Source of the DNA: a virus
Lineage: Duplodnaviria; Heunggongvirae; Uroviricota; Caudoviricetes
Reading direction: 5' to 3' (one strand)
DNA length: 64,000 nucleotides
IMG/VR virus record: IMGVR_UViG_3300014208_000038
Each line of letters begins with the position of its first letter. Position 1 is the first letter of the stretch. Below the pieces are notes generated by a model. That model was given only the letters and a program-made list of their open reading frames with translations, was not told the DNA's origin and made no database searches. Both the position numbers and the translations under genes were made by a program. Positions 7,626 to 60,400 of this stretch are shown here, one piece after another.

Positions 7626-7729
7626 ATGAATTCTGGATAGGATTCATGACGGGGGCAATAATATCAGTGGCTATAATATACATAGCCATTAATTTAAATA
7701 GGAGAGGATGTCATGAGTGATGATCTCAT
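7622..7729 (+). CDS. small TM protein starting MNEFWIG (third use of the repeat-encoded start)
   Basis: 35-aa hydrophobic ORF; ATGA overlap with upstream. Confidence 0.25.
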
Positions 7730-9344: not shown

Positions 9345-9431
9345 CTTAAATAAAATATTTAAGGGAAACCCTTAAATAAAATATTTAAGGGAAACCCTTA
9401 AATAAAATATTTAAGGGAAACCCTTAAATAC
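9345..9431. repeat. perfect tandem repeat: 3 full + 1 partial copies of the 26-bp unit CCTTAAATAAAATATTTAAGGGAAAC; each unit contains a 9/9-bp palindrome (CCTTAAATA...TATTTAAGG)
   Basis: read directly; intergenic, upstream of the Ubl/E1 operon. Confidence 0.9.
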
Positions 9432-9515
9432 TAATATGTGCTTAGTATTTAATACTGCGATACGAAAATGTTTGTGTCGCTTAAGAATAAAAAATAAAGA
9501 GAGGACTGATAAAAA

Positions 9516-9877: not shown

Positions 9878-10441
9878 ATGATTTTCACGAAAAATATTGC
9901 TATTATTGGCTCAGGTGGATTAGGAGCAAACCTTACAATGCTTTTGTTGGATCAAGGATACAATGTATTTTTGATAGATGGAGATACAGCAGATGAGAAG
10001 TTTTTTAAGAGATTTTCCACATTTACCAACTCTTTTGTTCTTAACTCAGGAAGAGCAAAGGTAGAAGTAGTAAAATCTGTAGCTCGTGGAAGAGGTTATG
10101 AAGATAAAATTAGAACTAGATCAGTAATGGTTGGACCGGAATTTGATTACAACTTATTTAAGCCTTATGAGCTGGTAATCATTGCGGTGGATACAATTAC
10201 TGGAAGGCAAACTATTGAGCTTAATCTTAAAAAGAATGGATTGACTAATTTTATCCACGTAGGGCTCAATCTGAATAGCATTAGTATTTTTAAGACGGCT
10301 GATGGATTACTAGGGGCAGATCCGCTACCGGATGCTCAAACTTCATATGATAGAGTCCCGGATGCAAGAACATATCTTACAGCTTGTTTAGAAGTATTAG
10401 ATATAATTGATCCTGTAACCATTCAGGTATATAAGGAGTAA
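9878..10441 (+). CDS. ThiF/MoeB-family E1-like adenylyltransferase (short, 187 aa)
   Basis: Rossmann IAIIGSGGLGANLTMLL...DGDTADEKFFKRF, parallel to E1 G-x-G-x-x-G ... D-x-D-x-x-E-x-x-N/R; SD agaggaggaATG. Confidence 0.65.
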   Translation: MIFTKNIAIIGSGGLGANLTMLLLDQGYNVFLIDGDTADEKFFKRFSTFTNSFVLNSGRAKVEVVKSVARGRGYEDKIRTRSVMVGPEFDYNLFKPYELVIIAVDTITGRQTIELNLKKNGLTNFIHVGLNLNSISIFKTADGLLGADPLPDAQTSYDRVPDARTYLTACLEVLDIIDPVTIQVYKE

Positions 10442-10447
10442 ATAAAT

Positions 10448-11536: not shown

Positions 11537-11542
11537 AAAGGA

Positions 11543-12241
11543 GTGAGTTTAAAAATGTTAGATGAAGTAAAGCATAGTCAATGTCCCATATGCACCGATT
11601 TAGATACTTCAAAATGTGAGGTTAAAATGGGTGCCGTGGTTTGGGGTTATCTTCAAGCCCTAATGTATAAAATGGGAAGTCAAGAATTTGCTGCGTATCT
11701 TTTGGGGTCCATAAGTGAAGATGGACAAAAATTTATTGTTGATGAGTATTATATTCCAACACAGGGAGTAAATTCAGTAAATGTAGAGATAGGCGAAGAA
11801 ATTTTTACAATACCAAAAGAAATTAGGGAAAGAATAATTGGTCATCTACATTCTCATCATATAATGGGTTTCTCTCCAAGCGGAACAGACAAGGAACATC
11901 TTAATTATCCTTTACATATCATAATTGCACATCAAGGATATAAAACCACAATTAGAAAGAGGGTTGGATGTGGTAAATGGCTTGCTATTTCTGATGTTCC
12001 GATTACGTTCTATTCGGATTATGTAGAGCTGGGTGAGACTGAAAAAATTGAGATCGTACAACCAAAATATGTTGATTTATATCAAAGTAGATTAGATGAG
12101 GGTGGAAATTATTTTGATCCTGTGGAAGAAAAAGATAATTTTGAAGAGTACCAAAAATATTTAGAAAATGAAAATAATTCTTGGTTTCCCCCATCATCGG
12201 AAGTGGTAAGCCGAGAAATTCAAGATGGAATGGAGATTTAA
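11543..12241 (+). CDS. JAB/MPN (JAMM) metalloprotease, deubiquitinase-like
   Basis: JAMM motif HLHSHHIMGFSPSGTD (H-x-H-x7-S-x2-D); upstream Glu present. Confidence 0.75.
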   Translation: MSLKMLDEVKHSQCPICTDLDTSKCEVKMGAVVWGYLQALMYKMGSQEFAAYLLGSISEDGQKFIVDEYYIPTQGVNSVNVEIGEEIFTIPKEIRERIIGHLHSHHIMGFSPSGTDKEHLNYPLHIIIAHQGYKTTIRKRVGCGKWLAISDVPITFYSDYVELGETEKIEIVQPKYVDLYQSRLDEGGNYFDPVEEKDNFEEYQKYLENENNSWFPPSSEVVSREIQDGMEI

Positions 12242-12243: not shown

Positions 12244-12441
12244 ATGAGTGGGTTTGACCGTTTATGTATTACAGTAAGAGAAGATCAAAGAGAAGAAATG
12301 AAAAAATATCCTGAAAATTATTCAGGGTGGGTTCAAATATTTTTAGACATGCTATTGAAAAATTTAGCAATAGCAAAAGAAAAAACAGAAAGGGAATTTT
12401 TAGAAAAAATTGATGATAAAAGAGATGATAATGCACAATGA
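12244..12441 (+). CDS. hypothetical protein
   Basis: ATG at 12244 directly after the JAB stop; the track start at 12181 overlaps the JAB gene. Confidence 0.35.
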   Translation: MSGFDRLCITVREDQREEMKKYPENYSGWVQIFLDMLLKNLAIAKEKTEREFLEKIDDKRDDNAQ

Positions 12442-13130
12442 GAACTATTGTTTGTGGGGATGCCCACGGGCAACCCTGGCTTATTCAGAATGTATTAGAT
12501 CGTTCTGAATATGATGTAAGAAAAGATAGGTTGATATTTGTGGGGGATTCAGTGGATATTGGATATTCTGCCTTAGATTGTTTGAATATTTTATTAGACA
12601 ATAAAGCAGAAATACTTTGGGGAAACCACGATTTAGCATATATCTTAGGTAAATCAATCTGGCCACAAAATCAGTTTGATTATGATTTTTATGATAAATT
12701 GATGGAAGTAAAAGATCAAATAAAAGTATTCACTCAATGTGGAAATATTTTTATAACACATGCGGGAATATCTGAACATTATTATAGATGTTTTTTAGGG
12801 ATTATTTTCAATTTAAATCCAAAATTTGAAAATATTTCAGATGTAAGGAAAAATTTAGAAAATTATATAAATTCTTCTTCCTTAGAAGAATTATGGAAGA
12901 AAGATAGCCCTGTTTGGTATCGACCAAATAAATCTGATCCGCCAATTGGTTTCTTACCTCAAATAGTTGGTCATACCCCTCCAGGATGGTTAGCACAAAC
13001 AGGATTGCAATTAGATAACTTTATAAGTGTTGACCCCTATAGTACAATTGGGTTTGATGAAACCAGGTATAGATATGTAATTATAGAAAACAATGAGATG
13101 AAATTAATAGATTCAAATATAAAAAAATAA
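12438..13130 (+). CDS. calcineurin-like metallophosphoesterase (PPP-family phosphatase)
   Basis: GDAHG ... GDSVDIG ... GNHD motifs in canonical order. Confidence 0.75.
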   Translation: MRTIVCGDAHGQPWLIQNVLDRSEYDVRKDRLIFVGDSVDIGYSALDCLNILLDNKAEILWGNHDLAYILGKSIWPQNQFDYDFYDKLMEVKDQIKVFTQCGNIFITHAGISEHYYRCFLGIIFNLNPKFENISDVRKNLENYINSSSLEELWKKDSPVWYRPNKSDPPIGFLPQIVGHTPPGWLAQTGLQLDNFISVDPYSTIGFDETRYRYVIIENNEMKLIDSNIKK

Positions 13131-20408: not shown

Positions 20409-20831
20409 TTGGTAAATCCAATGAAATACAAGCTCGATAGGTCTGCACATTCAGTGTACTCACTTCACTATCACTTGGTGGTAGTCATCAAGTACCGTAG
20501 GAAAGCACTCTATGATGAAGCGATTCGCGAGAGGCTAAAGCAGATCATTTGGAGTTTGATGGATGAACTTGGAATAGAAATACTAGCACAGGAACCCGCC
20601 GAAGATCATCTCCATATACTGTTCACAGCGACACCTACAACCAACTTATCCAACGTCGTGAATGTAATCAAGGGCGTCACTGCCAGAAGACTCCGACAAG
20701 AGTTTCCGCAAACCAAGGAGTTCCTTTGGGGGGACTCATTTTGGTCAAATTCCTACTTCATTTCCAGTACAGGGCAGGTATCTCTCGATGTTCTGATGCA
20801 GTATGTAGAGTCTCAGATGGAGAAAGTATGA
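20409..20831 (+). CDS. tnpA: IS200-type Y1 (HuH) transposase TnpA
   Basis: HuH motif HYHLVVV and downstream catalytic Tyr region; about 140 aa. Confidence 0.9.
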   Translation: MVNPMKYKLDRSAHSVYSLHYHLVVVIKYRRKALYDEAIRERLKQIIWSLMDELGIEILAQEPAEDHLHILFTATPTTNLSNVVNVIKGVTARRLRQEFPQTKEFLWGDSFWSNSYFISSTGQVSLDVLMQYVESQMEKV

Positions 20832-22015
20832 TTATAAGCTACAAGTATCCTATCTTCCCGAATAAGATCGCCCAATGGAAGTTAGCGGAGAATTTGGATG
20901 CTTGTAGATGGCTCTATAATCGGCTTCTCCAAGACCTGAATGAAGCAAAAGAAAAAGGTATCAAGCTCAAGACCTATGATTCTCAGAACATGATTCCTTC
21001 TCTGAAGCTCGTAAATCCAAAGCTGGATCTTGTCTACTCTAAAGTTCTTCAGATGGTGAATTACACTCTTTGGTCTAACATCAAAGGACTCTCGGCATCA
21101 AAGAAGAACGGTCGGAAGATCGGTCATATCCGCTTCAAAGGGTATGGTTGGTATAATACCCTGAATTACAACCAATCCGGGTTCAAGATCGATCGAGATC
21201 ATGGCCTATTGCATCTCTCCAAGATCGGAGAAATGCGGATCAAGATCTATCGAAAGATCGAAGGTTGCATCAAAGCCGTCATAATCAAGAGAGAAGGCGA
21301 GAGATGGTTCGCCATAGTCCAGGCCAATCAGGAACCACAGCCGTTACCAAGAACCGAGGAAGCGGTAGGTCTGGATGTCGGTTTGACTTCCTTCGTGGTT
21401 GACTCCGAAGGCAATAATATAGAAAATCCAAGATGTGCCGAGCAATCTGCTGATAAACTGGCAAAGCTACAAAGAAAGCTAGCCAGAGCCAAGATGGGAT
21501 CAAATAATCGCAAAGCAATCAAGGATAAGATCGCCAAGCTGCATAAAAGAATCAATTGCCAACGAGATGATTTCCTGCATAAGTTATCTCGGACCTATAT
21601 TAATAACTTTGATATCATTTGTGTTGAAGATCTTGATGTCAAAGGCCTGAAAGAGAAAGGCCATAACACTGGCATGCATCGCAGCATTCATGATGCATCC
21701 TGGTCTAAGTTCATATTCATGCTTTCGTACAAGGCTCAAAGTGCTGGTCGAAAGTTGATAAAAGTAGATCCCAGGAACACCACTCAAAGGTGTTCTGCTT
21801 GTGGAAGCATCGTAAAGAAAGATCTGTCGGTACGAGTACATGAGTGCCCTTATTGCGGATTCTCGTGTGATCGAGACTATAATGCTTCCAGGAATATACT
21901 CATCACAGGGATGGAACAGCCCGTAGCGCCCAAAGAACCAAAACCACTACATCACATATCAGTGATGCAAGTTTTGGCAATGACGTGGGAAGCCGTGCCC
22001 TTCAGGACGCGGTAG
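20828..22015 (+). CDS. tnpB: TnpB (OrfB) RNA-guided-nuclease-family protein
   Basis: RuvC-like motifs (GLDVGL, ICVEDLDVKGL), C-terminal zinc finger CSACG...CPYCG...RDYNAS.NI; ATG 20828 overlaps tnpA stop; the track start 20726 is an over-extension. Confidence 0.9.
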   Translation: MIISYKYPIFPNKIAQWKLAENLDACRWLYNRLLQDLNEAKEKGIKLKTYDSQNMIPSLKLVNPKLDLVYSKVLQMVNYTLWSNIKGLSASKKNGRKIGHIRFKGYGWYNTLNYNQSGFKIDRDHGLLHLSKIGEMRIKIYRKIEGCIKAVIIKREGERWFAIVQANQEPQPLPRTEEAVGLDVGLTSFVVDSEGNNIENPRCAEQSADKLAKLQRKLARAKMGSNNRKAIKDKIAKLHKRINCQRDDFLHKLSRTYINNFDIICVEDLDVKGLKEKGHNTGMHRSIHDASWSKFIFMLSYKAQSAGRKLIKVDPRNTTQRCSACGSIVKKDLSVRVHECPYCGFSCDRDYNASRNILITGMEQPVAPKEPKPLHHISVMQVLAMTWEAVPFRTR

Positions 22016-22822: not shown

Positions 22823-23293
22823 ATGAAAAAGTTTCTTATTAAAGATTCAAAACTTTTGTCTCAAATTAAAAATATTATTAATATAAAATGGAAAGCAAAT
22901 AAGAAATATGTTCTTGCGGATTTAGTAATCTCTGCTCCAAATATTTATACTCCAGATTTAAGAACAGAATATGCATTTACGCCAGATGGAGATTTAATTG
23001 GAGATCCTAAAGCAGCTCAAATCTTGATTACTCAAAAAGGAATTAAACCTGAATTAAGAAGGCCCATAGATCAGATTTGTAGTATTGGATGGAGTTCTAA
23101 GACTCAAATGTACTATGGTTGGACATCTGGTAAAATAAGAGGTTTTAAAGTCAATGGAAAACCATTGGAATCTGGAGACATATTAACTGATATTTTAGAG
23201 GCAGGTTACGTCCCTCAATCAAAAGAAGATTGCAAACAGATGGCTATTTTGTTTGTGGAATTAGCTTCAAAAGAAGGTAAAATGCATGGTTAA
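22823..23293 (+). CDS. hypothetical protein
   Basis: SD aggagggaaataaaATG. Confidence 0.4.
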   Translation: MKKFLIKDSKLLSQIKNIINIKWKANKKYVLADLVISAPNIYTPDLRTEYAFTPDGDLIGDPKAAQILITQKGIKPELRRPIDQICSIGWSSKTQMYYGWTSGKIRGFKVNGKPLESGDILTDILEAGYVPQSKEDCKQMAILFVELASKEGKMHG

Positions 23294-30130: not shown

Positions 30131-30913
30131 TTATTCTCCTATAAAAGAATCCATATTTTTTATTATTTCTTTTGGATTGTTATATAAGTTCTTCCATCTT
30201 ATTCTTATAAGTTCCCATCCCAAACTAATTAATAATTTATCTTTCTTTTTATCACTTTCTATTTGTTTTTTAGTAAGATGTTGATCTCCATCAATTTCTA
30301 TTGCTTTCATTTTTTCTTTCCAAGCAAAATCTATAGAATAACGACCAACAGAATATTCTCTAATATAGTTTTTATCTTTAAAATTATTTTTTATTGCCTT
30401 TATTACAAATTGTTCTGGATAAGAAGGTTCATTATTCCAACGACAAGATCCTATATTATGAGCCCTGCCTTCTGCATGAGCTTTTTTCATAGATTTTGAA
30501 ATTTTTATTTTTTGTTTACCACTTATAATAGGATGTGGATTTTTTAAATAATATTCTTTTTTTATTTTACTAAGGCTTAGGCATAAATTTTTTGTTTTTT
30601 CTTCTCCATAAAGTTCGTTATATGTTTTATCTTTATTGAAATTTGGTTTTCCTAATTTTATATATTTTATTTTTTTAGAATGTTCTTGACCAGAATAAAT
30701 ATGTACGCGCCATATATGAGTAGAAATTCCTTTTAAAGTAAATTCTTTTGAACAAATAGGGCAAAGATAAAATCCATTTTCTTGTATGCAATTTTTATTT
30801 ATTTCAAAATTTTTTATTTTTTTAATATTAGAATGAGATAAAATATGTTTTTTAATATTAGAATTACTTATTAATCTTTTACACTCTGGGCATTCTGTTT
30901 TATTTCTAATCAT
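30131..30913 (-). CDS. 2x C2H2 zinc finger + DUF559 (Vsr-like endonuclease fold) protein; putative site-specific/homing-type endonuclease
   Basis: CPECK...H...H and CPICS...H...H fingers; C-terminal YSVGRYSIDFAW...IEIDGDQH...LGWELIRIRW is the DUF559 signature. Confidence 0.6.
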   Translation of the reverse strand: MIRNKTECPECKRLISNSNIKKHILSHSNIKKIKNFEINKNCIQENGFYLCPICSKEFTLKGISTHIWRVHIYSGQEHSKKIKYIKLGKPNFNKDKTYNELYGEEKTKNLCLSLSKIKKEYYLKNPHPIISGKQKIKISKSMKKAHAEGRAHNIGSCRWNNEPSYPEQFVIKAIKNNFKDKNYIREYSVGRYSIDFAWKEKMKAIEIDGDQHLTKKQIESDKKKDKLLISLGWELIRIRWKNLYNNPKEIIKNMDSFIGE

Positions 30914-30932
30914 AAAAACTCTCTGAATTTAA

Positions 30933-31004
30933 TCTGTACTCCCGAAGTTGAATCGGGTTAATCTCGGTCTACAGCCGAGTGCATAACCGTTCTGCCAAGT
31001 ACAG
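30933..31004 (-). tRNA. tRNA-Tyr (anticodon GUA), 72 nt, C1:G72 pair
   Basis: manual fold: acceptor CTGTACT/AGTACAG, anticodon arm CTCGG-CTGTAGA-CCGAG, T-arm CCCGA-TTCAACT-TCGGG; C1:G72 is the archaeal/eukaryal Tyr identity pair; no encoded CCA. Confidence 0.7.
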
Positions 31005-31151
31005 TTTTTTGCCACCACAGATATTTCGATATACTAACAGCGTACTCGTCTTTTCTAGACTTATGGGTGTTGACTCCTTTTCCTGAAGCCGCAAGGGTAC
31101 TGATTTATATCGAGGTACTACTACCCTTTATTCCCTTCTATGGTGACAAAA

Positions 31152-31257
31152 TGGACAGTGAGGAACTCGAATCCCCGGCCTCCTGCTATTTTGTTTGACC
31201 TTTCCCCATTATGTCAAAAATGCAAAGCAGGCTATCTTCCAACTGATATAACTGCCC
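31152..31257 (-). tRNA. tRNA-Ala (anticodon UGC) with a 33-nt intron at position 37/38
   Basis: acceptor GGGCAGT/ACTGTCC with G3:U70; D-arm TATC-AGTTGGAA-GATA; anticodon stem CCTGC/GCAGG, loop TT-TGC-A | intron TTTTTGAC...GTCAAACAAAAT | A; T-arm GGGGA-TTCGAGT-TCCTC; followed by TTTT. Confidence 0.75.
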
Positions 31258-31295
31258 AAGAGCAGTGATTATGTGCCCAATATCCCTATCACCAA

Positions 31296-31369
31296 TGGGC
31301 TTGTTCGGATTTGAACCGAAGGCCAAGTGGTTCCAGACCACCTATGCTACCAGGCTACACTACAAACCC
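31296..31369 (-). tRNA. tRNA-Pro-like (anticodon UGG), unusual C33
   Basis: acceptor GGGTTTG/CAAGCCC, D-loop TAGCCTGGTAGC (archaeal/eukaryal style), anticodon arm GGTGG-TCTGGAA-CCACT, T-arm TTCGG-TTCAAAT-CCGAA; TTTATAG TATA-like box about 28 nt upstream. Confidence 0.6.
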
Positions 31370-31458
31370 ATATCTTAGTATATGGTTCTTCTATAAATAG
31401 TTTTCTCTTATGATTTCGGAGCGTTAACTATTTATCTTAGGCAACATAAGAATATATT
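31370..31458. promoter_or_regulatory. divergent promoter region: TATA-like boxes for the minus-strand tRNA cluster and the + strand ligase gene
   Basis: minus-strand AAAACTATTTATAGAAG about 28 nt upstream of tRNA-Pro 5' end; + strand ACTATTTATCTTAGG about 30 nt before ATG 31459 (no SD, leaderless-like). Confidence 0.45.
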
Positions 31459-32109
31459 ATGAAATACCCTCATACTCCATATTTTAGTTTTAGTCCAGCA
31501 GTAAGCGAGAAAGATAGAAACAGAAAGGATGTATATATTAATTTACAACATCTTCTTAATAAGCCTTTAGTATTTACTATTAAGATGGATGGTAGTAATT
31601 TAGGAATGACTAGAGAAAAAATATTTGCTAGGAATGGAATTGATGCCAGGCACAAATCGTTTGACTTAGCAAAGAGCCTTCATAACAGAATTAAGAAAGA
31701 AATTCCAGAAAATGAAATTTGGTATGGAGAGTGGTTGTATGCTAAACATTCTATTCATTATTCTGATCTAGAATCGTACTACCAATTATTTGCTATATAT
31801 TTTGTTGAAGAAGATTATTGGACTGGAGTTAATTGGATAAAGAATAGGGCAGAACTTCATGGACTGAAAACCGTGCCTTTGCTTACTAGAGGACCACAAT
31901 ACGGGGATGTTAAAACTTTGAAGCAGGTAATTCAACAGGAGGGAGACAGAGTAATTAAAATGGGTCAAGAAGGTATTGTGGTTAGAACCAAAGATGGGTT
32001 TTACGCAAAAGACTTAAATAAGTGTATAGCGAAATATGTTCGTGCAAATCATATTCAAACCGATGAGCATTGGAAAACACAGAAAATTGTGAAAAATTTA
32101 TTGAGGTGA
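31459..32109 (+). CDS. compact ATP-dependent polynucleotide ligase (KxDG nucleotidyltransferase), RNA/DNA ligase-like
   Basis: motif I TIKMDGSNLG (Lys-x-Asp-Gly), motif IV-like EWLYAKHS, motif V-like GIVVRTKDG...AKYVR; 216 aa. Confidence 0.6.
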   Translation: MKYPHTPYFSFSPAVSEKDRNRKDVYINLQHLLNKPLVFTIKMDGSNLGMTREKIFARNGIDARHKSFDLAKSLHNRIKKEIPENEIWYGEWLYAKHSIHYSDLESYYQLFAIYFVEEDYWTGVNWIKNRAELHGLKTVPLLTRGPQYGDVKTLKQVIQQEGDRVIKMGQEGIVVRTKDGFYAKDLNKCIAKYVRANHIQTDEHWKTQKIVKNLLR

Positions 32110-33473: not shown

Positions 33474-35786
33474 TTGACTCAAAAAGAACTATCGATTGAA
33501 GAATTAAAATTTTTAAAAGAGAACAAAATAGACTTTGAAGGAGATTTAATTACAGAATACGTAGAAAGAGGTTATAATCTTTGCCCTGTAAGTAAAGGAA
33601 CTAAAGATCAATACCTATACAAATGGTCGTTGCTTCAAGAAAAAAAAGCAACTCTTCAACAAATTAATGGGTGGAGAGGAAAATATAACTCAGATTGGGT
33701 TCTTGTATGTGGAAAACAGAATGAGAACATTATTGTAATTGATTTTGATGATCCAGAAATTTATGAAAGGTATTTTTCTGAGTATAAGAAAATGTTATCT
33801 AGATCTCCTTCTGGAGGTTATCATCTCTATATTAAGGCCAAAAAACTTCCGGGTGCTATAAATGGATTTGGAGGATTTTTAATTGATATCAAAGGGGAAG
33901 GTTCCGTTTGCCACATTCCTCCATCAGAAGGTAATGATTGGATTTTCTTGGAGTCAGAACCTGATGAAATTGATATAAATATAGAAGATTGGATTCTATC
34001 TTTGCTCCCTTCTGGCAAAATAGAATCAAAATATAAGACAGGGGAAATTCCAGCAGATATTTTTAGTTATGCTAGAGAGAAACTTAAGGTAACTTTTGAG
34101 GATAAAAAAGGTAGATATCTTAAATGTACCTGTCCTTTTCATAGAGGCGGAAAAGAAACAGATGGTTCTTTAACTATATTTGCTCATGACCAAAAGTTTT
34201 GGTGTTTTTCCTGTCATAAAAAGGGAGGAATGTTTGAGCTAATAAAAGAATTTGAGTCAGGAATTACTGAAAATGAAATTTTAGAGCGATATGGTCTAAT
34301 CAAAGAACCTGGAACTATTGTTCAAAAAGTAATTAAGTTAGCTAGAGATAGTTGTAAATTTGTTAAAGATCAGAATAATACTACATATGCAGTTATTATA
34401 AAAAATCAATGTGATATGGATCAGAACATCTATGTTATTGATAGCCTTGGCTTCAGATGGTGGTTAGCTCATAATTATGAAGCTGTATATGAAGGGGCCT
34501 TACCTTCGGATAATCAAGCAAGTCAGGCAATGAAACATTTAGCTGGATTTGCTATTACAAAAGGAGAGAGAATTAGAAGTTTTAATAGAATTGGTGTCGG
34601 AAATAATTCTAAAGAAATATTTTATGATATCGGAGATGGTTCCTATCTTAAAATAGAACCTGATGATATAAATATTGTTAAATCAACAGATCTATTCTTT
34701 AGAAGAGAGAGTCATCAAGGGATACAGGTTTTGCCTCATAAATTTAACCCAATGGATACAATTAAATTATTTGATATTATAAATGTAAAAGAACAGAAGA
34801 GTAAACTGCTTTTAATTGCCTGGCTAGTGACTTCTCTGCTTCCCGATGAAGAACATCCTGTTTTATTACTTCATGGTTCGCAGGGTGCCGGTAAGTCTGT
34901 TGCTGCTAGGATCACAAAAAGGTTAATTGACCCAACCAGTTCAGAAAAGAATGAATTATCTAGGTTAAATGCTAAAGATTATGGGCAAATTACATTTACA
35001 TTAGCTCATAATTTTGTTACTATATTCGATAATATATCTTTTACTGATAAATCAATAGATGATATTCTTTGTTTGGGTGTAACTGGTGGATCAGAAATTA
35101 AAAGAGCCTTATTTACGAACTCAGAAACTGTGTCTACAGATATTAGCAGTACTATTATTCTAACAACTATCAACCCGGATTTGATCACAGCAGGAGATCT
35201 TGGAGATAGATCTATACAGATCGAATTAGATAGACCTGTAGGAAAGTTTTTAAACAGGAAATTTATTGATGCTCACTTTAATTCTGTCAAATCTGAGATT
35301 TTTGGTGGGCTGATTGCCTTGGTACAGCTTTATCTAGAGAAAAAAGAAGAGTTAGAAAAAGAACCATCTAGCTTTAGGATGACTACATATGCCGCTGTTG
35401 GAAAACTTGTAGCCGAAACACTTGGATTAGGAAGTTTTGAAGAGGCTTATCTAGCAGATCAGCTATATATTACTAGATCTGTGCTCGAAAATGAGCCTTT
35501 GTCTCAATTTGTTTATTATATGGCAGATCAACATCCTGATACTCCGTATTCTTTTACGGATCTTTTAGCTGAAATGCAAGATTGGGGCACTAAAACTGGA
35601 ATTAATACTACAATTGGCAAGGAATTTCCAACTGGTGCAAAAGGTATGTCTCAAAAACTAAAAAGATTAGAAGAAGATCTAAGGAGAAGTTGGAAGATTA
35701 AAACTACCAGATGTGATGTAAATAAGAGTAGAGGAATTATGTTTAGTAAACCGGGATCATCCGATATAAGAAGAGAGGAGGAATAA
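33474..35786 (+). CDS. primase-polymerase (prim-pol) / CHC2 zinc-finger / P-loop NTPase (D5-like helicase) fusion protein
   Basis: N-terminal prim-pol (IVIDFDD...SPSGGYHLYI), CHC2 finger CTCPFHRGGKETDGS...CFSCHKKG, Walker A HGSQGAGKSV; apparent TTG start. Confidence 0.75.
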   Translation: MTQKELSIEELKFLKENKIDFEGDLITEYVERGYNLCPVSKGTKDQYLYKWSLLQEKKATLQQINGWRGKYNSDWVLVCGKQNENIIVIDFDDPEIYERYFSEYKKMLSRSPSGGYHLYIKAKKLPGAINGFGGFLIDIKGEGSVCHIPPSEGNDWIFLESEPDEIDINIEDWILSLLPSGKIESKYKTGEIPADIFSYAREKLKVTFEDKKGRYLKCTCPFHRGGKETDGSLTIFAHDQKFWCFSCHKKGGMFELIKEFESGITENEILERYGLIKEPGTIVQKVIKLARDSCKFVKDQNNTTYAVIIKNQCDMDQNIYVIDSLGFRWWLAHNYEAVYEGALPSDNQASQAMKHLAGFAITKGERIRSFNRIGVGNNSKEIFYDIGDGSYLKIEPDDINIVKSTDLFFRRESHQGIQVLPHKFNPMDTIKLFDIINVKEQKSKLLLIAWLVTSLLPDEEHPVLLLHGSQGAGKSVAARITKRLIDPTSSEKNELSRLNAKDYGQITFTLAHNFVTIFDNISFTDKSIDDILCLGVTGGSEIKRALFTNSETVSTDISSTIILTTINPDLITAGDLGDRSIQIELDRPVGKFLNRKFIDAHFNSVKSEIFGGLIALVQLYLEKKEELEKEPSSFRMTTYAAVGKLVAETLGLGSFEEAYLADQLYITRSVLENEPLSQFVYYMADQHPDTPYSFTDLLAEMQDWGTKTGINTTIGKEFPTGAKGMSQKLKRLEEDLRRSWKIKTTRCDVNKSRGIMFSKPGSSDIRREEE

Positions 35787-35788
35787 AT

Positions 35789-36526
35789 ATTTTTAAATTA
35801 TCACCCATTAATTTAATTGAAGAAGAGAATTTCCATAATGCGTGGGTCAAGGCGATTAAGTTTTGTGATCGTTATGGAACTCCAATAGTTTTTGGAGATA
35901 AAAAAGATCCCAAAAAAGCAAAAGATAGTTGTCAAACTATATCTTTAACCGGAAATGCAATTACTCAAATAGAGAACAAAGAAATTCACCCCAAGTTTCC
36001 ATTTAAACAGATTAACCAATATTGTAGTGAATTTACTAGAGAATATTTAGAAGAATATTTAAAAAAGCCTGATAATCAAAAATTTGCTTATTTATATTTT
36101 GATAGATTAGTTAATTATGATTGTGGAACAGAAAATGGAATTATAGATCAATTATCTGTATTAAAATATCAATTACAAAAACAGATAGAAGATAATATAA
36201 TTAATAATAGATGTCAGGCTATTACTTGGTATCCTGATGTAGATTTGAGATCTAATAGCCCGCCGTGTTTATTGTCTATTCAAGTAAGATATGTAGGAGA
36301 ACAAAAAGTAGATGTTCATTGGCATTTTCGCAGTCGAGATTTGATTTCTGCATGGCAAGCTAATGTAATTGCCTTAACAGAATGCATAAACAGAGAAGTC
36401 GTTTGGCCAAATAATTGTAGACTTGCTAGAATTATAGATTATAGCGATAGCTTGCATCTCTATAATAATATGCAAAATGTGGTAAATGAAGTTGAGTTAG
36501 TTCCTGATATTTCATTCTACCATTAA
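35789..36526 (+). CDS. divergent thymidylate-synthase (ThyA)-family pyrimidine C5-modifying enzyme; lacks an ATG start
   Basis: frame open from 35789 with no in-frame ATG before 36245; ThyA-like motifs RCQAITWYP (RxxxxSAWNP), SPPCLLSIQ (LPPCH with His to Leu), FRSRD (QRSxD), ANVIAL (FNIASY), SLHLYNN (DAHxYxNH). Confidence 0.6.
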   Translation: MFKLSPINLIEEENFHNAWVKAIKFCDRYGTPIVFGDKKDPKKAKDSCQTISLTGNAITQIENKEIHPKFPFKQINQYCSEFTREYLEEYLKKPDNQKFAYLYFDRLVNYDCGTENGIIDQLSVLKYQLQKQIEDNIINNRCQAITWYPDVDLRSNSPPCLLSIQVRYVGEQKVDVHWHFRSRDLISAWQANVIALTECINREVVWPNNCRLARIIDYSDSLHLYNNMQNVVNEVELVPDISFYH

Positions 36527-38370: not shown

Positions 38371-38575
38371 TTATGTTCTCAATGTGGCATGATAGTTCTT
38401 AAAGATCTTTCAGTTAAGGTTCATAAATGCCCTTACTGTAAGCTAGAACTAGATCGAGATCATAATGCCGCGCTTAATATACTAAGATTGGGATTACAAT
38501 CTTTGGGTAGTATAATCTATTCTTTGAATGGGTAAATCCCTAGAAGCTCCGCCCTTCAGGACGGGGAGTAGTCAC
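38371..38575 (+). pseudogene. relic of an IS200/IS605 element: TnpB C-terminal fragment plus right-end sequence
   Basis: translation MCSQCGMIVLKDLSVKVHKCPYCKLELDRDHNAALNIL parallels the intact TnpB C-terminus ([37 protein letters not shown]); followed by ...CCGCCCTTCAGGACGGGGAGTAGTCAC matching the IS right end ...GTGCCCTTCAGGACGCGGTAGTTCAC; AT-ameliorated. Confidence 0.8.
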
Positions 38576-38591: not shown

Positions 38592-38957
38592 ATGGAATTT
38601 AAATATAAAATGGCAATAGTTATAAGAAAAGATTTAGAAATGTCTCCTGGAAAACTTGCAGGACAATGTGCTCATGCTGCCTGTGGATGTTTGAGGGCAC
38701 CCATAGGACCAGAAAAATCAAAATATATAGAGGAATGGTTTGAAGAAGGTCAAGTGAAAGTAATTTTGCAAGTAGAAAAACAAGCAGATTTACATATGTT
38801 AGCTTCTAAATGTTTATTAGAAGAAGTACCTTATTATTGTGTTAGAGACTTTGGACTTACAGAATTGGAACCTAATACGCTTACTTGTGTAGGAATTGGT
38901 CCAGATCTCAAAAAGAATGTAGATAAAATTACGGGAAATCTTAAACTATATAGGTGA
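38592..38957 (+). CDS. pth2: peptidyl-tRNA hydrolase, PTH2 (archaeal/eukaryotic type)
   Basis: MAIVIRKDLEMSPGKLAGQCAHAA matches the PTH2 signature (V.R.DL.M..GK.AAQ.AHA); about 120 aa; SD ggaggaatttaagatATG. Confidence 0.8.
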   Translation: MEFKYKMAIVIRKDLEMSPGKLAGQCAHAACGCLRAPIGPEKSKYIEEWFEEGQVKVILQVEKQADLHMLASKCLLEEVPYYCVRDFGLTELEPNTLTCVGIGPDLKKNVDKITGNLKLYR

Positions 38958-38964
38958 TTCTTTT

Positions 38965-39156
38965 ATGAAGGTAAGCACAGAACTTCAAAATTGTAGCCTA
39001 GAAATTAAATATATAGGAACTCCACTTAATATAGCTTTTCAAGAACTGTTTGATACTATAATGAGATTAAGCAATTCTTTTAAAAAAGAGCTTGCGGAGG
39101 GTCTTAAAGAGGCTTCTAAAGTTTTAAAATCTTTTTCGGAGCAATTAGAAAAATGA
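38965..39156 (+). CDS. hypothetical protein
   Basis: 63-aa ORF. Confidence 0.35.
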   Translation: MKVSTELQNCSLEIKYIGTPLNIAFQELFDTIMRLSNSFKKELAEGLKEASKVLKSFSEQLEK

Positions 39157-39282
39157 GATATCTTTTCTTAAGTTTATTTTTTTTGGGTTTTGCTTTTAAT
39201 ATTTTTAAGTTGGTTTTTGAGCATCAGTTTTATATTCTAGTAATTACTAGTATGGTATTGTTAATAAAGAGGTGGATTAAAG

Positions 39283-39519
39283 ATGGCAATATGGTTTAGT
39301 AGAATAGAACAGTCAATAGTAGATTTTGCTTTTACGAGAATAATAACTGGTAGACCAGTGTTTTATGCCAGAGATCTTGAGAATTTTGTGCGATCTCGAC
39401 ATCCAGATATTGCTCCAACTACTCCATGTAGAATAATGAGGCAACTCCGGCTTAAGAATCACCTGGGATATAAAGTTTTAAACAGGAACGAATCTTTGTA
39501 TCAAATGAAGTGGGTATGA
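39283..39519 (+). CDS. hypothetical protein (possible small DNA-binding protein)
   Basis: 78-aa basic ORF. Confidence 0.35.
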   Translation: MAIWFSRIEQSIVDFAFTRIITGRPVFYARDLENFVRSRHPDIAPTTPCRIMRQLRLKNHLGYKVLNRNESLYQMKWV

Positions 39520-39667
39520 GGTATGATTGAAGAAAGGAGAGAATATTATAGAAACAGATATTTTTTAAAAAAGAAAGCAATTCGAGAAGTTCAAGAAAAA
39601 TTAATAAATGAAGAAAATGAAGATTTAGAAAGAATGGCTGAAATTTTATTTAAGGAGGATAAGTAAA

Positions 39668-39862
39668 ATGGATGAGAAACAAAAAGTTTTTGTCTACGGT
39701 CTTAGGACTGTAATAAGACAAAAAATCAAGAAAACTGGGGATACAGTTAATAAAGGACAGTTAAGAACAATAGATACAGTTATTGATGGACTTAATATTA
39801 TAGAAGATATGAGTTTAGAAGAGGTTCAAAAATTAATGAAGAAAATGGAAGGTGAGATTTGA
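39668..39862 (+). CDS. hypothetical protein
   Basis: SD aaggaggataagtaaaATG. Confidence 0.4.
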   Translation: MDEKQKVFVYGLRTVIRQKIKKTGDTVNKGQLRTIDTVIDGLNIIEDMSLEEVQKLMKKMEGEI

Positions 39863-40896
39863 TGGAGCAAAATCAAAAATCTAGGCATCTAGCCTCTGTT
39901 CAACAAATTGTAGATATTCAACCTATTGAAAATGCTGATTCTATTGAACTAGCTCGTGTATTAGGTTGGAATGTAGTAATTAAAAAAGGACAATTTAAAG
40001 TGGGAGATCCTATAGTATATTTTGAAATTGATAGTGTCCTCCCCAAAATTCCTGATTTTGAGTTTCTTAAAGATAAGCATTACAAAGTAAAAACTTGTCG
40101 TCTACGTGGAGCTATTTCCCAGGGGCTATGTACTCCATTAAGTATTCTGCCCGAAGGACATTATGATCTTGGAGATGATGTAACAGAGATTCTTGGAGTA
40201 ACTAAATACGAGAAGCCTATTCCTGTTCAGTTGAGAGGGAGAGTTCGAGGTAATTTTCCAAGAGGGATACCTAAAACAGAAGAGCTGCGGGTTCAATCTA
40301 TTCCACATATAGTAAGTAAATATCAAGGATATACGTTTACTCTAACTGAAAAATTAAATGGTACTTCTGCTACGTATTTTTTGGATGAAGAGACTGGATT
40401 ACATTGTTGCAGCAGAAATTTAGATTTACATCCAGAGACGGTACACAAATTCAATGGAACTGCGTATTGGTTTTTGGCTGAGAAACTAAATATTGAAGAA
40501 ATTATTAAAACATTAGGTAAAAATATCGTGATCCAAGGAGAAATCATTGGCAATGGAATTAATGGAAATCAATATAAATTGAATGATCTTCAACTAAAGA
40601 TATTTAATTTATATGATAAAGAAAACCATGTATATCTGGATCAACAAGTAATGAATGATATCATAGAAGGTCTTGGATTTTCTAAAGATTTTTTTGTCCC
40701 GTATCTTGGACAGATTACGTTGGATCAGAATGTAGATCAAATTGTGGAAATGGCTTATGGAAGATCTGTAATTAATCCAGATGTAATTCGGGAAGGCTTA
40801 GTTTTCCGAGCCAGTCCAGAGATTATAGATCCATTTGTGGGCAGAGTAAGCTGGAAATGTATCTCTCCGAGCTTTAACCTAGAGTTCAAAGAATAA
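39859..40896 (+). CDS. RNA ligase-like nucleotidyltransferase (Rnl2-like family) with N-terminal extension
   Basis: motif I-like TEKLNGTSATYF (K-x-N-G in place of K-x-D/H-G), downstream EGxV and K-rich motif V-like regions; 345 aa. Confidence 0.5.
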   Translation: MMEQNQKSRHLASVQQIVDIQPIENADSIELARVLGWNVVIKKGQFKVGDPIVYFEIDSVLPKIPDFEFLKDKHYKVKTCRLRGAISQGLCTPLSILPEGHYDLGDDVTEILGVTKYEKPIPVQLRGRVRGNFPRGIPKTEELRVQSIPHIVSKYQGYTFTLTEKLNGTSATYFLDEETGLHCCSRNLDLHPETVHKFNGTAYWFLAEKLNIEEIIKTLGKNIVIQGEIIGNGINGNQYKLNDLQLKIFNLYDKENHVYLDQQVMNDIIEGLGFSKDFFVPYLGQITLDQNVDQIVEMAYGRSVINPDVIREGLVFRASPEIIDPFVGRVSWKCISPSFNLEFKE

Positions 40897-52427: not shown

Positions 52428-53009
52428 ATGAATTCTAAAAATGATAGAGCTAAAAAGTTAATGGGTTTAAGACCAATAGGAGAAGTATTAAACCCAAATT
52501 TTAGCTTTATTTGTCCTGTTTGTCAAAATGCTTTGCAATTATCCGAATATAATAATTTTTTATGGTGTAAATATTGTAATATAGATATGCCTATCTATTT
52601 AGGATGGAAAGTTCTTTTAATAGATGATGTAAAAGCAATTACAAAAGATTTTTTAAATTTAATAGAAAACATAAAAAAAAATCCTTCTATTGCTAATTAT
52701 ATGGAAAATATAAGGTCAAAAACTTCTCTTGCTTATTGTATAATAAGTATTTTAGAAAAAGAAGGAGAAATAGAATTTAGAAAATTTAGATTTCTTTTAT
52801 TTGAATTATATTCAAATTTAAAAACAAAAAATATAGATATTAAGCTGCCTCATTATTGGTATGTAGACGGACCTCATATATATCTTAGAGGATTACCAGC
52901 AGTATTTAAACTAAGAATTAAAAAGAGTTTGGAAGATCCGAAGATATATAAAGTTACAATTTTATTAGATAAAAATATAAGCCCAAAATGTATAGAGGAA
53001 AACTTTTAA
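52428..53009 (+). CDS. zinc-finger hypothetical protein
   Basis: CPVCQN...CKYCN. Confidence 0.4.
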   Translation: MNSKNDRAKKLMGLRPIGEVLNPNFSFICPVCQNALQLSEYNNFLWCKYCNIDMPIYLGWKVLLIDDVKAITKDFLNLIENIKKNPSIANYMENIRSKTSLAYCIISILEKEGEIEFRKFRFLLFELYSNLKTKNIDIKLPHYWYVDGPHIYLRGLPAVFKLRIKKSLEDPKIYKVTILLDKNISPKCIEENF

Positions 53010-53035
53010 ATACAATTAAGGAGAATAGTAAGATT

Positions 53036-53782
53036 ATGTCGCAAAATAGATATCCATCCTTGGGAGACAGGATGAAAGAATATGAGGCAATTTCTCAAAA
53101 TAAATTGACTAGAAGGATGCCGGTTATTATTAGATTAGATGGCAAAGGATTTCATAATTATACAAGAAAAATGAAAAAACCTTATGATTCAGATCTTCAG
53201 TTAAATATGTGGAGATCTACAATAAGATTGTGTCAAGAGGTCCAAAATACAGTACTTGCATATTGTCAAAGTGATGAGGTTAGTCTTCTTATTGTAGACT
53301 ATAACACATTGAACACTCAACCTTGGTTTGCTAATGAAGTACAAAAATTATGTTCTCTAGCGGCATCTAGTATGACTCAATATTTTAATGATCCCCAAAC
53401 TAGAGGTGAATTACCTTATGGAGCGCGGTTTGATGCTAGATGTTTTAATCTTCCAAGGGAAGAGGTTACAAACTATTTTATTTGGAGAGAATTAGATTGG
53501 ATAAGAAATAGTATTCAAATGTTAGCACAATATTATTTTAACCCAAAAGAGTTATATAAGAAAAATACTAACCAAATGAAAGAAATGATTTTAAAAGAAA
53601 CTGGAATAAATTGGGATACTAATTTACAACCCTTCCAACGTAGAGGAACTACTTGTATAAAGAAAAATGAGAAATGGATTGTTGATTGTAATCTTCCAAT
53701 GTTTAACGAGAATAGAAATTATATAGAAAATTTATTATATAATGATAAAAATATTTTAGATAGTCCCAAAACCTTTTTATAG
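53036..53782 (+). CDS. Thg1-like protein (tRNA-His guanylyltransferase / 3'-5' nucleotidyltransferase family)
   Basis: N-terminal ...PVIIRLDGKGFHNYT... and ...AYCQSDEVSLLI... match the Thg1/TLP palm motifs; SD aaggagaatagtaagattATG; the track start 52988 is an over-extension. Confidence 0.6.
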   Translation: MSQNRYPSLGDRMKEYEAISQNKLTRRMPVIIRLDGKGFHNYTRKMKKPYDSDLQLNMWRSTIRLCQEVQNTVLAYCQSDEVSLLIVDYNTLNTQPWFANEVQKLCSLAASSMTQYFNDPQTRGELPYGARFDARCFNLPREEVTNYFIWRELDWIRNSIQMLAQYYFNPKELYKKNTNQMKEMILKETGINWDTNLQPFQRRGTTCIKKNEKWIVDCNLPMFNENRNYIENLLYNDKNILDSPKTFL

Positions 53783-57443: not shown

Positions 57444-60400
57444 ATGTTTAAAGATATCCAAGAGTTAAATTCTCAAATTAAGGTTTGCCAAAAGTGTAAA
57501 TTAGCTCAAGTTAGAGAAAAAGAAAATGGAAAAATAGTTATTGGAAGAGGGTCCAAAAATCCAGATATTTTGTTCGTGGGCGAAGGCCCTGGGCAAACCG
57601 AAATGCAAGAGGGTCGTCCCTTTTGCGGTCGAAGTGGAAAACTCTTGGATATTGCATTAGAAAAAAATAATATTAAAGATTATGCGATAGTAAACATAGT
57701 TAAATGTCATCCTCCGGGTAATCGTCCTCCAGAGAAAGATGAAATTGATGCCTGCAAATCTTGGTTAGAGGAGCAAATAAAACTCCTTAATCCTAAGACA
57801 ATTGTTCCTCTTGGAAATACAGCTCTTAAATTCTTTTTTCCAAAAAATGGTATAACTTCCTCTCACAAACAATGTTTTGAATTAAACGGTAGACAATTTA
57901 TTCCATTATATCATCCTGCCTATATTTTAAGAAATCCGAGTATGAGAGATTCTTATATAAAGGATTTCACTATTTTAAATAATAATTCAAACCATGTAAA
58001 AGGAGAATCTATCAAAGAAGAAATAAAAAAAAACCATATACATCAGGAGATCTCTATAAAAAATTTTCAAGAGGATGTCTTGCCTTTCCACTTAAAAATT
58101 GATGGTCAATCTCAACCTTTTGTTCATTTACATAATCATACAGAACGAGGTTCTCCTGGAGATGTCTACAGAAATTTAGATGAATGGGCTATTGATCTTA
58201 AAGAAAAGGGCTTTGGCGCAGGCGCTTGTACAGATCATGGATCTTGTTCTGGATTATATTATTTCCAAAGGGCTATGCAAAAACAAAATATTAAGCCAAT
58301 TCTTGGAGTAGAATTATATATTAAAGAAGGAGCAAAAACATCGCACATGGTTTTACTTGTAAAAAATGAAATAGGATGGCAGAATCTTTTAAAAATTAGA
58401 AGAGAATCTTGGCTTAATAGAGATGCGGGGAAAAAGGTAAGCAATAATAGTAGAAGCACTATTGAGAGTGTTTTAGAAAATCATGAAGGTCTAATTTGTT
58501 CCACCGCCTGCATAAACGGATTTTTAGGTTATAAAGTTAAAAATCAGCTTGAATATGAACCAATGATTCTTAAATTTAAAGAAGTATTTGGTGAGGATTT
58601 TTACCTAGAAGTGCAACCACATATAATTCCTGAACAAGTAATGGTTAACAAAGTGGTTATCCAACTTCACGAAAAATATAATATTCCAATTATAATAACA
58701 GCAGATACTCATTATACACATAAAGAAGATAAAGAAATTCATAACATAGTGGAAGCCCTCAGATATAGAAGAGTATTTCACAAAGATGTTACTATAAATG
58801 ATAACCCAGGATTTACAGGAAATACATATTATAATTTAACCTCAGAAGATATTGACCAACTGGTAGAAGAAAATCATAGTTATCTAAAACCTTATCTAAC
58901 AGAGGCTATGGCAAATACAATAAGAATTGCAGAAAAATGCAATTTTATTCTTCCTAGTTCATATCAAAATACTTTACCTGAGATACCGGATGCAGAAGAA
59001 TATGTTGCTCAAAAAATTGCCAGCAATATGCACTTAGTAGCACATCATGATCCAAAATTGATTCAAGAAAGATTGGATCTTGAATTAACTAGAATTCGAA
59101 ATAAGAATTTTTTACCTTACTTTGTTATTGTAGCTCGTCTTTTTGAGTATGCAAAACTGCAAGGGATACCTTGCGGTCCTGGTAGAGGTAGCTCTGGAGG
59201 TTCACTTGTAAGTTATTTGCTAGGGATTACGAAAGTTGACCCCATTAGATTCAATCTTTTGTTTGAGAGATTTTATTCTGAAGCAAGAATTGATCCTCCA
59301 GATATTGATAGTGATTTTAGTCAAGAGAGGAGAGAAGAACTTATTGGCTATTTGAAGTCGCAATATGGTAATGATAATGTTTCTAATATTATTACCTTTT
59401 CAAAATGGAAGGGAAAAGGCGTATTTCGAGATGTTTGTAGAATTTATAATATTCCTTTGTCCCAAGTCAATTTAGTAGCAAAATTTATTGAATCCACAAA
59501 AGAAGGACATGATATCCAAGAAGCAATTGACAAAAACGATATTGTAAGAGAATTTTATGTAACTAATCCTAAAGTAATGGATATAGCAAAAGCTTTAGAA
59601 GGACATACAAATTTTTATGGAAAACATGCCGCTGGTATAGTTATTTGTCCTAATTTAGCTCAAAAAATTCCATTGGAAGCAATTAAAGATGCTGAATTAA
59701 CTTCATGGGAGAAGGATGCTCTTGGAGAACTAGGAATTATTAAGCTAGACTTGCTTGGATTATCAATTCTAGATGAAATAGATAGAACTATTACTAATGC
59801 TAACCTAACTTGGGAAGATTTACCTTATGAGTTTGAAGATCCAAAGGTTTATGATTTATTGAATAAAGGATTAACAATGGGGGTTCATCAATTTGAAACA
59901 CTTTCTGCAACTCAATATGTTCAAAAAGTTCATCCAGACGCATTTCAAGAGCTTATTGATATTACGTGTCTCAATAGACCTGGCCCGACAAAAGCTGGAG
60001 CAGCATTAGAATATGTATTAAGAAAGAATAGTAAATCTTGGGAATATTATCATTCTATTATATCTGATATTACAAAAGAAACAAAAGGTCTTATTATAAC
60101 CCAAGAGCAAGTTATGAGAATAGTTAATAAAGTTGGTGGATTTAGTTTAGAAGAAGCTGAAAAAGTTAGAAAGATTATAGGAAAATCAAAAGGATCAGAT
60201 GCACTAAATAAAAAGAGAGAACAATTTATAAATGGAGCAATAGAACAAAATGGTTTAACAAAAGAAGAAGCAGAAGGTTTATTTGATAAATTAGTTAATT
60301 TTGGTGGATACGGTTTTAATAAATGTTTAAGCGGAGATACACAAATATTTGATGCCAATACAGGATGCCATTATACAATAGAATTTTTATTTAAAAACCA

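Follow-up and report, generated by a model that had tools for sequence, protein, structure and literature searches.

The PTH2 and RNA ligase genes

The 64,000-nucleotide stretch of DNA analyzed here (hereafter, the window) belongs to a virus of the class Caudoviricetes (Duplodnaviria; Heunggongvirae; Uroviricota; IMG/VR record IMGVR_UViG_3300014208_000038); its GC content is about 30%, and nearly every gene lies on the plus strand. Within its replication and nucleotide-metabolism region are two genes whose products act on RNA, the peptidyl-tRNA hydrolase PTH2 and an ATP-dependent RNA ligase (Table 1). Four small open reading frames (ORFs), as called by JGI on the 79-kb source contig Ga0376277_0001889, separate the two genes and have no match in Pfam or PHROG. 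Both gene products fall within families known from large viruses and are unremarkable members of them; the viral lineage is new.

The PTH2 product matches Pfam PF01981 over the entire profile (positions 1–115 of 115; E 7.7e-37; 126.5 bits, cut-off 23) and passes the cut-offs of two NCBIfam equivalogs, NF003314 (131.8 vs. 126) and TIGR00283 (116.2 vs. 82). These matches uphold the identification made in a preliminary description of this DNA, which had relied on the signature GKLAGQCAHAA (residues 20–30 of the ORF). Seven solved Pth2 structures align with the viral protein, the best being that of P. horikoshii (PDB 1wn2; E 4e-26). Archaeal Pth2 (P. horikoshii 1wn2; S. solfataricus 1xty) and human PTRH2/Bit1 (1q7s) resemble it in length (approximately 120 amino acids) and align with it over their full length, with E-values from 4e-26 to 1e-18. 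However, identity to named cellular Pth2 proteins reaches at most about 45%, and the viral protein reads DFG after the catalytic Asp where most homologs have DAG. Seven residues (K21, H28, K56, D86, G88, T90, and T98) are invariant across 54 PTH2 homologs, a set that includes the S. solfataricus sequence. K21 and D86, the residues that mattered for the catalytic check suggested in the preliminary description, align with S. solfataricus Lys18 and Asp86, which we take to be the catalytic residues of that enzyme (Fromant et al., 2005). The gene thus reads as intact, with its predicted catalytic Lys21 and Asp86 retained, and it is under purifying selection (ratio of non-synonymous to synonymous substitution rates, dN/dS, of 0.12–0.25).

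The second gene had been described as an Rnl2-like RNA ligase with an N-terminal extension. That it encodes an RNA ligase is borne out: the RNA_ligase nucleotidyltransferase domain (PF09414) covers residues 160–322, the protein passes the TIGR02306 equivalog RNA_lig_DRB0094 (169.6 vs. 151.15) and matches the RNA ligase family phrog_968 (2e-66), and the nucleotidyltransferase fold is further indicated by alignment of residues 9–318 with the solved structure of NgrRnl, an RNA ligase from Naegleria gruberi (PDB 5cot; E 2.9e-55). The Rnl2-like label, however, is ruled out. A family profile built from 120 homologs matches NgrRnl with an E-value of 9.4e-104 over chain positions 5–339 of 340, against only 1.5e-6 for T4 Rnl2, where the core alone is aligned (profile positions 151–281). 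T4 Rnl2 (PDB 1s68, 2hvq) shares the PF09414 core and the nick-sealing chemistry with the family of the viral ligase, but it has a C-terminal helical domain and lacks an N-terminal OB domain. The viral ligase is the reverse: it ends 12 residues past the motif V lysine, with no further C-terminal domain, and the N-terminal extension, which does exist, is not an add-on but the OB domain (PF21189) that defines the Rnl5 family (PMC5397189). The same layout, an N-terminal OB domain followed by a C-terminal adenylyltransferase and nothing beyond, is found in NgrRnl and in DraRnl of Deinococcus radiodurans (DR_B0094, TIGR02306). On these sequence comparisons, the ligase is assigned to Rnl5 (NgrRnl/DraRnl type). 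Its gene is under purifying selection, with a dN/dS of approximately 0.09 within the clade that carries the motif I Asn discussed below. The start called by JGI, an ATG at 39862 that overlaps the upstream stop codon by 1 nt and gives a protein of 344 amino acids, is probably the true one.

The active-site residues of NgrRnl can be mapped onto the viral ligase as follows: R4 to R9, D53 to D58, K121 to K116, R149 to R144, K170 to K165, D172 to N167, E227 to E228, E312 to E312, and K326 to K333. R9 and D58 are among the matches within the OB domain. All of the residues that are essential in NgrRnl (K170, E227, E312, K326, and R149, the arginine of the ATP gamma-phosphate; PMC7261155) therefore have an identical counterpart; the lysine nucleophile, the residues of motifs III, IV, and V, and the ATP-contacting residues of the OB domain are all kept with respect to NgrRnl and DraRnl. 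E164, K165, and G168 are invariant in the 120 ligase homologs, and Lys165, which aligns with the adenylylation lysine as the preliminary description had asked to be verified, is the predicted nucleophile of the viral enzyme.

The viral ligase differs from NgrRnl in being encoded by a virus, among replication genes, and in having Asn in place of Asp in motif I. This Asn167 is a genuine minority variant, as had been proposed: the position holds Asp in 114 of the 120 homologs and Asn in the other six, of which four constitute the clade of the viral ligase itself (82–88% identity) and two, P0050 and P0057, are only 47–49% identical to it. In NgrRnl, D172 is a water-mediated ligand of the catalytic metal, and a D172A mutant remains able to seal nicks and was crystallised in its lysyl-AMP form (PMC7261155). 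Because Ala at this position leaves NgrRnl active, the Asp does not define activity, the Asn is no mechanistic oddity, and membership in Rnl5 is kept despite Asn167. Asn167 is therefore regarded as tolerated and maintained by selection, and not as a defect.

Table 1. Positions of the genes, domains, and RNA features of the window that are discussed in the text
Feature	Position	Strand	Evidence or remark
PTH2 peptidyl-tRNA hydrolase, 121 aa	38592–38957	+	PF01981, NCBIfam equivalogs, PDB matches
Rnl5 ATP-dependent RNA ligase (predicted), 345 aa from TTG start	39859–40896	+	PF21189 and PF09414, TIGR02306, PDB 5cot
N-terminal OB domain of the ligase, residues 11–94	39889–40140	+	PF21189 E 9.5e-29; aligns with NgrRnl OB
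Motif I of the ligase, EKLNGTS, residues 164–170	40348–40368	+	Aligns with NgrRnl VKLDGSS (K170, D172)
Four small ORFs between PTH2 and ligase (63, 78, 47, 64 aa)	38965–39862	+	JGI gene calls
Zinc-ribbon ORF upstream of PTH2, 78 aa	38134–38370	+	tblastn in relatives
TnpB C-terminus remnant, 48 aa (TNB domain, CxxC...DRDxNA)	38389–38535	+	Between zinc-ribbon ORF and PTH2
Thymidylate-synthase-like frame	35773–36526	+	62% identical to a relative's 259-aa protein
RtcB 3'-phosphate RNA ligase, 386 aa	1476–2636	+	PF01139 E 1e-107
HD-type metal-dependent phosphohydrolase-like ORF directly after RtcB	2643–3137	+	phrog_990 E 2.4e-36
ThiF/E1-like gene, unannotated 362-aa gene, and JAB-domain gene in a row	9878–12241	+
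Calcineurin-type phosphoesterase, end-healing candidate	12438–13130		Window scan
Intact TnpB (HTH, OrfB_IS605, TNB domains)	20726–22015	+	44% GC island in ~30% GC genome
Tad6 Thoeris-inhibitor homolog, counter-defence	22823–23293	+	PF25188 E 1.4e-20
Minus-strand island: C2H2-zinc-finger/DUF559/MTES_1575 endonuclease and three tRNAs	30131–31370	-	In otherwise plus-strand genome
tRNA-Tyr(GUA), 72 nt	30933–31004	-	ARAGORN; Rfam 52.3 bits
tRNA-Ala(UGC) with 33-nt intron	31152–31257	-	ARAGORN intron search; Rfam 47.1 bits
tRNA-Pro(UGG)	31296–31369	-	ARAGORN; Rfam 56.5 bits
Compact RNA ligase, nucleotidyltransferase domain only, 216 aa, motif I IKMDGSN	31459–32109	+	PF09414 E 1.3e-21; phrog_24030 RNA ligase 1e-45
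Thg1-like protein (TLP type)	52988–53782	+	PF04446 E 1.8e-28
DnaE-type Pol III alpha, 1768 aa, N-terminal uracil-DNA-glycosylase domain, intein with LAGLIDADG endonuclease	57444–62750	+

Conservation of the locus and distribution in other viruses

The locus was compared with those of three close relatives, L003, L005, and L006, whose ligases are 88, 82, and 66% identical to the viral one, and with three distant, virus-like metagenomic contigs of 44–138 kb (L045–L047; ligase identity of 51–56%). The close relatives have the same gene order: Prim-Pol, thymidylate-synthase-like gene, DCD, small ORFs, PTH2, small ORFs, Rnl5, NrdG/NrdD, dCMP deaminase, and SNF2. Since this order is kept in all three, the proximity of PTH2 and Rnl5 is part of an overall genome colinearity. 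According to tblastn, the 78- and 64-amino-acid ORFs are retained directly upstream of the ligase in each of these relatives, and the zinc-ribbon ORF, with 55–87% identity, adjoins PTH2 each time. In L045–L047, which encode PolB, a D5-type primase-helicase, and an XPD-like helicase, Rnl5 lies between NrdD and the replication genes, and no PTH2 is present within 10 kb of it. The proximity of PTH2 and the ligase is thus confined to the lineage of the window. Several NrdD and PolB genes of the L045–L047 group carry inteins, and one contig of the group encodes a domain resembling STIV_B116, whose family takes its name from a virus of archaea.

Other features of the region concern its recent history and expression. 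The TnpB remnant upstream of PTH2 is not found at this spot in the relatives. It was considered as a copy of the intact TnpB, but this origin was rejected, as the two share 61% protein identity without a significant DNA match; the intact gene lies in an island whose higher GC content suggests that it was probably inserted recently. The thymidylate-synthase-like frame has no in-frame ATG, GTG, or TTG before 36245, and it begins inside the end of the Prim-Pol gene; this points to coupled translation or to initiation at a non-canonical codon. Truncation of this gene was rejected, as the frame is open from end to end and only a canonical start codon is missing. Promoter and terminator scans of the window yielded no enrichment with respect to shuffled sequences and no clear operon boundaries.

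Searches with nucleotide sequences against GenBank phages (blastn) returned matches of only about 75–150 bp, inside the RNA-ligase genes of other phages, and therefore the locus has no close relative there. Neither the ligase protein nor the intron-tRNA pattern had a match in scans of IMG/VR, and a scan of GTDB genomes with the Prim-Pol protein had none either. At the protein level, both PTH2 and the ligase fall in existing PHROG families, and tblastn against GenBank phages detects PTH2 in 44 records, mostly of large or jumbo phages and often already annotated, and an Rnl5-type ligase in 343 records. The Sinorhizobium phages phiM7, M12, M19, and N3 and the Salicola phage SCTP-2 contain both genes, 21–89 kb apart. 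In jumbo phages, tRNAs, RtcB, ATP-dependent ligases, Thg1, and PTH2 have been described as a repertoire against tRNA-targeting effectors, and the archaeo-eukaryotic origin of phage PTH2 has been remarked on (Iyer et al., 2021, PMC7824862, section 3.4.9). The gene combination of those phages (Sinorhizobium phiM12 and Salicola SCTP-2 among them) is the same as in the virus studied here. However, they have bacterial hosts and bacterial-type tRNAs, with a wide spacing between PTH2 and the ligase, whereas the tRNAs of this virus are of archaeal type.

Two further viruses bring the genes closer together. In the 484-kb genome of an unrelated huge phage (L008; LR756508.1, 63430–103774), a homolog of the compact ligase, a second RNA-ligase nucleotidyltransferase domain, PTH2, and Thg1 lie within 25 kb, together with several tRNAs. 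In the nanohaloarchaeal tailed virus DNTV-1, which has 29 tRNAs, Pth2 (ORF50) adjoins an Rnl2-like ligase (ORF51; 10.1101/2025.02.15.638363). DNTV-1 is described as a large virus of archaea that has numerous tRNAs, a Pth2 of archaeal type, and RNA ligases, a set of features that resembles the virus studied here. Its ligases, in contrast, are reported to be of the T4 Rnl2 type and not Rnl5, and its lineage is halophilic (high-salt), with replication proteins of the PolB or another type. Given the 44 phage records, the jumbo-phage literature, and DNTV-1, the statement that PTH2 is unusual as cargo on a mobile element does not hold.

RNA-repair genes, tRNAs, and other features of the window

The three companions named in the preliminary description, RtcB, the compact RNA ligase, and the Thg1-like gene, are all present, each with a significant Pfam match (Table 1). 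RtcB is similar to its P. horikoshii counterpart (9e-48) and retains the metal-binding and His-GMP motifs. The ORF that follows it has no match in Pfam; its product could heal RNA ends for the ligases. For the compact ligase, a sequence search of the PDB gave no match. The Thg1-like protein is closest to the TLP of B. thuringiensis (PDB 4kgk; E 8e-54) and is predicted to be a tRNA 5'-end repair polymerase. Among the approximately 75 ORFs scanned in the window, which is part of the genome only, no polynucleotide kinase was found. The window thus holds the repertoire of tRNAs, RtcB, ATP-dependent RNA ligases, Thg1-like protein, and PTH2. With regard to the multi-enzyme tRNA set that had been proposed, every member exists; however, their dispersal across 52 kb makes them a repertoire, one already described (PMC7824862), and not a module.

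The tRNA genes of the window are grouped in a minus-strand island. At the gathering threshold, Rfam detects one tRNA only in the whole window, and nothing at the PTH2–ligase locus; tRNA-Ala(UGC), which was overlooked by this search and by default ARAGORN, was found by a permissive Rfam search and by an ARAGORN intron search. The tRNA-Tyr has a short variable arm, C1:G72, and A73, the tRNA-Pro has G1:C72 and A73, and the tRNA-Ala has G3:U70 and an intron directly after A37. Among the close relatives, L006 has a minus-strand tRNA island at the equivalent position, which holds a different pair of tRNAs (Phe and Trp), so the content of the island varies between relatives; the tRNA-Trp of L006 (233–304, minus strand) has G1:C72 and A73. 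In bacteria, by comparison, tRNA-Tyr has a long variable arm and G1:C72, tRNA-Pro has C1:G72, and tRNA-Trp has A1:U72 and G73. In the huge bacteriophage LR756501, used for comparison, tRNA-Tyr is 82 nt in length and has the long arm. By these identity rules, the three tRNAs of the window and the tRNA-Trp of L006 are of archaeal/eukaryal type.

For the intron of tRNA-Ala, a near-canonical archaeal bulge-helix-bulge (BHB) can be drawn; this motif is defined by an intron at position 37/38, a 4-bp helix, two 3-nt bulges, and pairing of nucleotides 34–35 with the intron (PMC4090602). In the hand-drawn fold, U32–G35 forms a 4-bp helix with C28–A31 of the intron, the inner helix has 6 bp, and the 3' bulge is AUA (3 nt), but the 5' bulge, CAUU, has 4 nt instead of 3. 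In the minimum-free-energy fold, the cloverleaf and the hairpin of the intron persist, whereas the central helix, which is weak, is lost. A metagenome scan retrieved about 16 intron-bearing tRNA-Ala(UGC) genes, archaeal in appearance, with the same 3' intron ending (CAAA+AUA/ACA) and a similar D-arm, one of which adjoins an archaeal large-subunit rRNA. A cassette-specific pattern had no match in the same kind of scan, and the source contig is apparently outside that collection; blastn of the tRNA island against phages gave no match either. An intron-bearing tRNA is known in the haloarchaeal virus HGTV-1 (PMC13532342).

Elsewhere in the window, the ThiF/E1-like, 362-amino-acid, and JAB-domain genes possibly form a ubiquitin-like conjugation/deconjugation trio. 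At approximately 9356–9432 is a short tandem array of the palindromic unit TATTTAAGGGTTTCCCTTAAATA, which surfaced as repeated terminator-like hairpins. A second GC-rich island (6001–8000; 40% vs. about 30% GC) contains ORFs without a Pfam match.

Possible functions and the host

The interpretation that we consider probable is that PTH2 and Rnl5 are two separate, catalytically competent auxiliary genes of the replication and nucleotide region, neighbours through conserved gene order and not members of a two-gene system. The catalytic competence of both is a prediction from their sequences. As a member of its family, PTH2 would cleave the ester bond of peptidyl-tRNA after ribosome drop-off, and probably that of N-blocked aminoacyl-tRNA as well, and so would return tRNA to the pool during infection. 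By analogy with NgrRnl and DraRnl, Lys165 of the ligase would be adenylylated by ATP with the assistance of the OB domain, the AMP would be handed to the 5'-phosphate at a nick, and attack by the RNA 3'-OH would seal the duplex. The most likely substrate would be RNA-ended nicks that arise in viral DNA during replication or repair, and nicked structured RNA a secondary one. RtcB, the compact ligase, the Thg1-like enzyme, and the three tRNAs, together with PTH2 and Rnl5, would represent a loose repertoire for tRNA and translation maintenance. A role of Rnl5 in replication or repair is rated above tRNA repair because of its replication-gene neighbours and because DNA ribo-patch repair by DraRnl in D. 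radiodurans is the only in vivo role shown for this family, whose functions are otherwise 'uncharted' (PMC5397189); its substrate may thus be DNA-linked.

Some observations weigh against this interpretation. PTH2, Thg1, and two RNA-ligase domains are clustered in L008, and Pth2 directly adjoins an RNA ligase in the archaeal virus DNTV-1 (10.1101/2025.02.15.638363), so tRNA repair or a functional link between PTH2 and the ligase may still apply. In addition, gene order in viruses often tracks the timing of expression, which makes a location in a replication block weak evidence for a DNA substrate. It is nevertheless rather unlikely that PTH2, Rnl5, RtcB, the compact ligase, and the Thg1-like protein act as one tRNA-repair pathway against a tRNA-cleaving defence of the host, in which PTH2 would free the peptide from broken peptidyl-tRNA, the ligases would reseal the breaks, and the Thg1-like enzyme would rebuild 5' ends. 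Every component of such a pathway is present and looks intact, RtcB is adjoined by an HD-type phosphohydrolase, and the Tad6 anti-Thoeris homolog indicates that counter-defence genes are carried by this genome; the L008 cluster and the DNTV-1 adjacency would fit as well. The idea of defence or translational takeover put forward in the preliminary description also agrees with the published view of the jumbo-phage repertoire as counter-defence (PMC7824862). However, the joint module that it implied is not borne out: the genes are scattered over 52 kb without an operon, and the context of Rnl5 consists of replication genes in two different viral groups. Moreover, Rnl5 seals duplex nicks and is not known to act on anticodon-loop breaks, its in vivo role so far being DNA repair (PMC5397189), and the fact that no 5'-kinase was found in the window, a partial genome, limits any RNA-repair route that uses an ATP-dependent ligase.

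Two other explanations deserve less credit. In standard assays, N-blocked aminoacyl-tRNA is a substrate of PTH2 enzymes, and the viral PTH2 could mainly detoxify the N-acetylated aminoacyl-tRNA produced by GNAT-type toxins of the host (TacT/AtaT-like) during abortive infection. Tad6, as another counter-defence gene in the genome, is in line with this idea. We regard it as improbable, since there is no toxin-related context around PTH2, the relevant activity has been shown for Pth1 and not for viral PTH2, and such an activity is compatible with a housekeeping role. Finally, decay of PTH2, the ligase, or both as passengers, such as inactivation of the ligase by the Asp-to-Asn change in motif I, is most improbable. 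The rarity of this Asn and the TnpB remnant just upstream of PTH2, a sign of local insertion and decay, could be cited in its favour, but the explanation is already largely refuted by the low dN/dS of both genes, the retention of all essential residues, the activity of NgrRnl D172A (PMC7261155), and the occurrence of Asn in the far more divergent P0050 and P0057.

As regards the host, the balance of the evidence inclines us toward an archaeon. In favour of this assignment are the four archaeal-type tRNAs (three in the window and one in L006), the nearest named homologs of PTH2 (Aenigmarchaeota and Nanoarchaeota), Rnl5 (Pacearchaeota), and NrdD (a metagenome-assembled genome, MAG, of Methanothrix), a methanogen-type thymidylate-synthase match, and the result that neither sigma-70-type promoters nor intrinsic terminators on the sense strand are enriched in scans of the window against shuffled sequences. 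In favour of a bacterial host are the DnaE-type Pol III alpha, the Bacillus-like TLP, the Tad6 anti-Thoeris homolog, the MAG label 'Bacilli bacterium' on the PTH2 of a relative (the sole label obtained from cluster look-ups), and the top GenBank matches, which are huge-phage genomes labelled 'uncultured phage.' The strong Shine-Dalgarno usage of the virus is compatible with either kind of host, and the names of NrdD homologs are mixed (the Methanothrix MAG, Bacillota, and Bacteroidota) and do not settle the question. A bacterial-type DnaE replicase would be unexpected if the host were archaeal. In that case, PTH2 and RtcB would be the host's own kinds of enzyme, and the job of RtcB would be to rejoin the viral tRNA-Ala after it is cut by the host endonuclease.

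A bolder proposal, which we consider unlikely, sees in the element one of two things: an archaeal virus of large size and low GC content that replicates by means of a bacterial-type DnaE, or a bacteriophage that imports an 'orthogonal' set of archaeal-type tRNAs (class I tRNA-Tyr with C1:G72, tRNA-Pro with G1:C72, and tRNA-Ala with the putative BHB intron). The bacteriophage version would need a splicing endonuclease and matching aminoacyl-tRNA synthetases, which were not found in the window. Under either version, the virus would use RtcB as the ligase in splicing its own intron-bearing tRNA, and it would have a self-contained kit for tRNA processing in the archaeal style, with PTH2 and the Thg1-like enzyme among the members.

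By itself, the finding adds one more uncultivated viral lineage with PTH2 and Rnl5, and matters little. More generally, Rnl5 recurs among replication genes in the two viral groups, which use different polymerases, and this placement favours a proposed role in sealing RNA-ended DNA nicks over one in tRNA repair, and the naturally fixed Asn at the metal-ligand position of motif I provides a ready-made variant for the two-metal model of adenylylation. The archaeal-type tRNAs alter how unusual PTH2 is on this element, and their presence, one of them with a putative BHB intron, in an RtcB-bearing genome of largely bacterial or phage-like proteins may outweigh the finding on PTH2 and the ligase.

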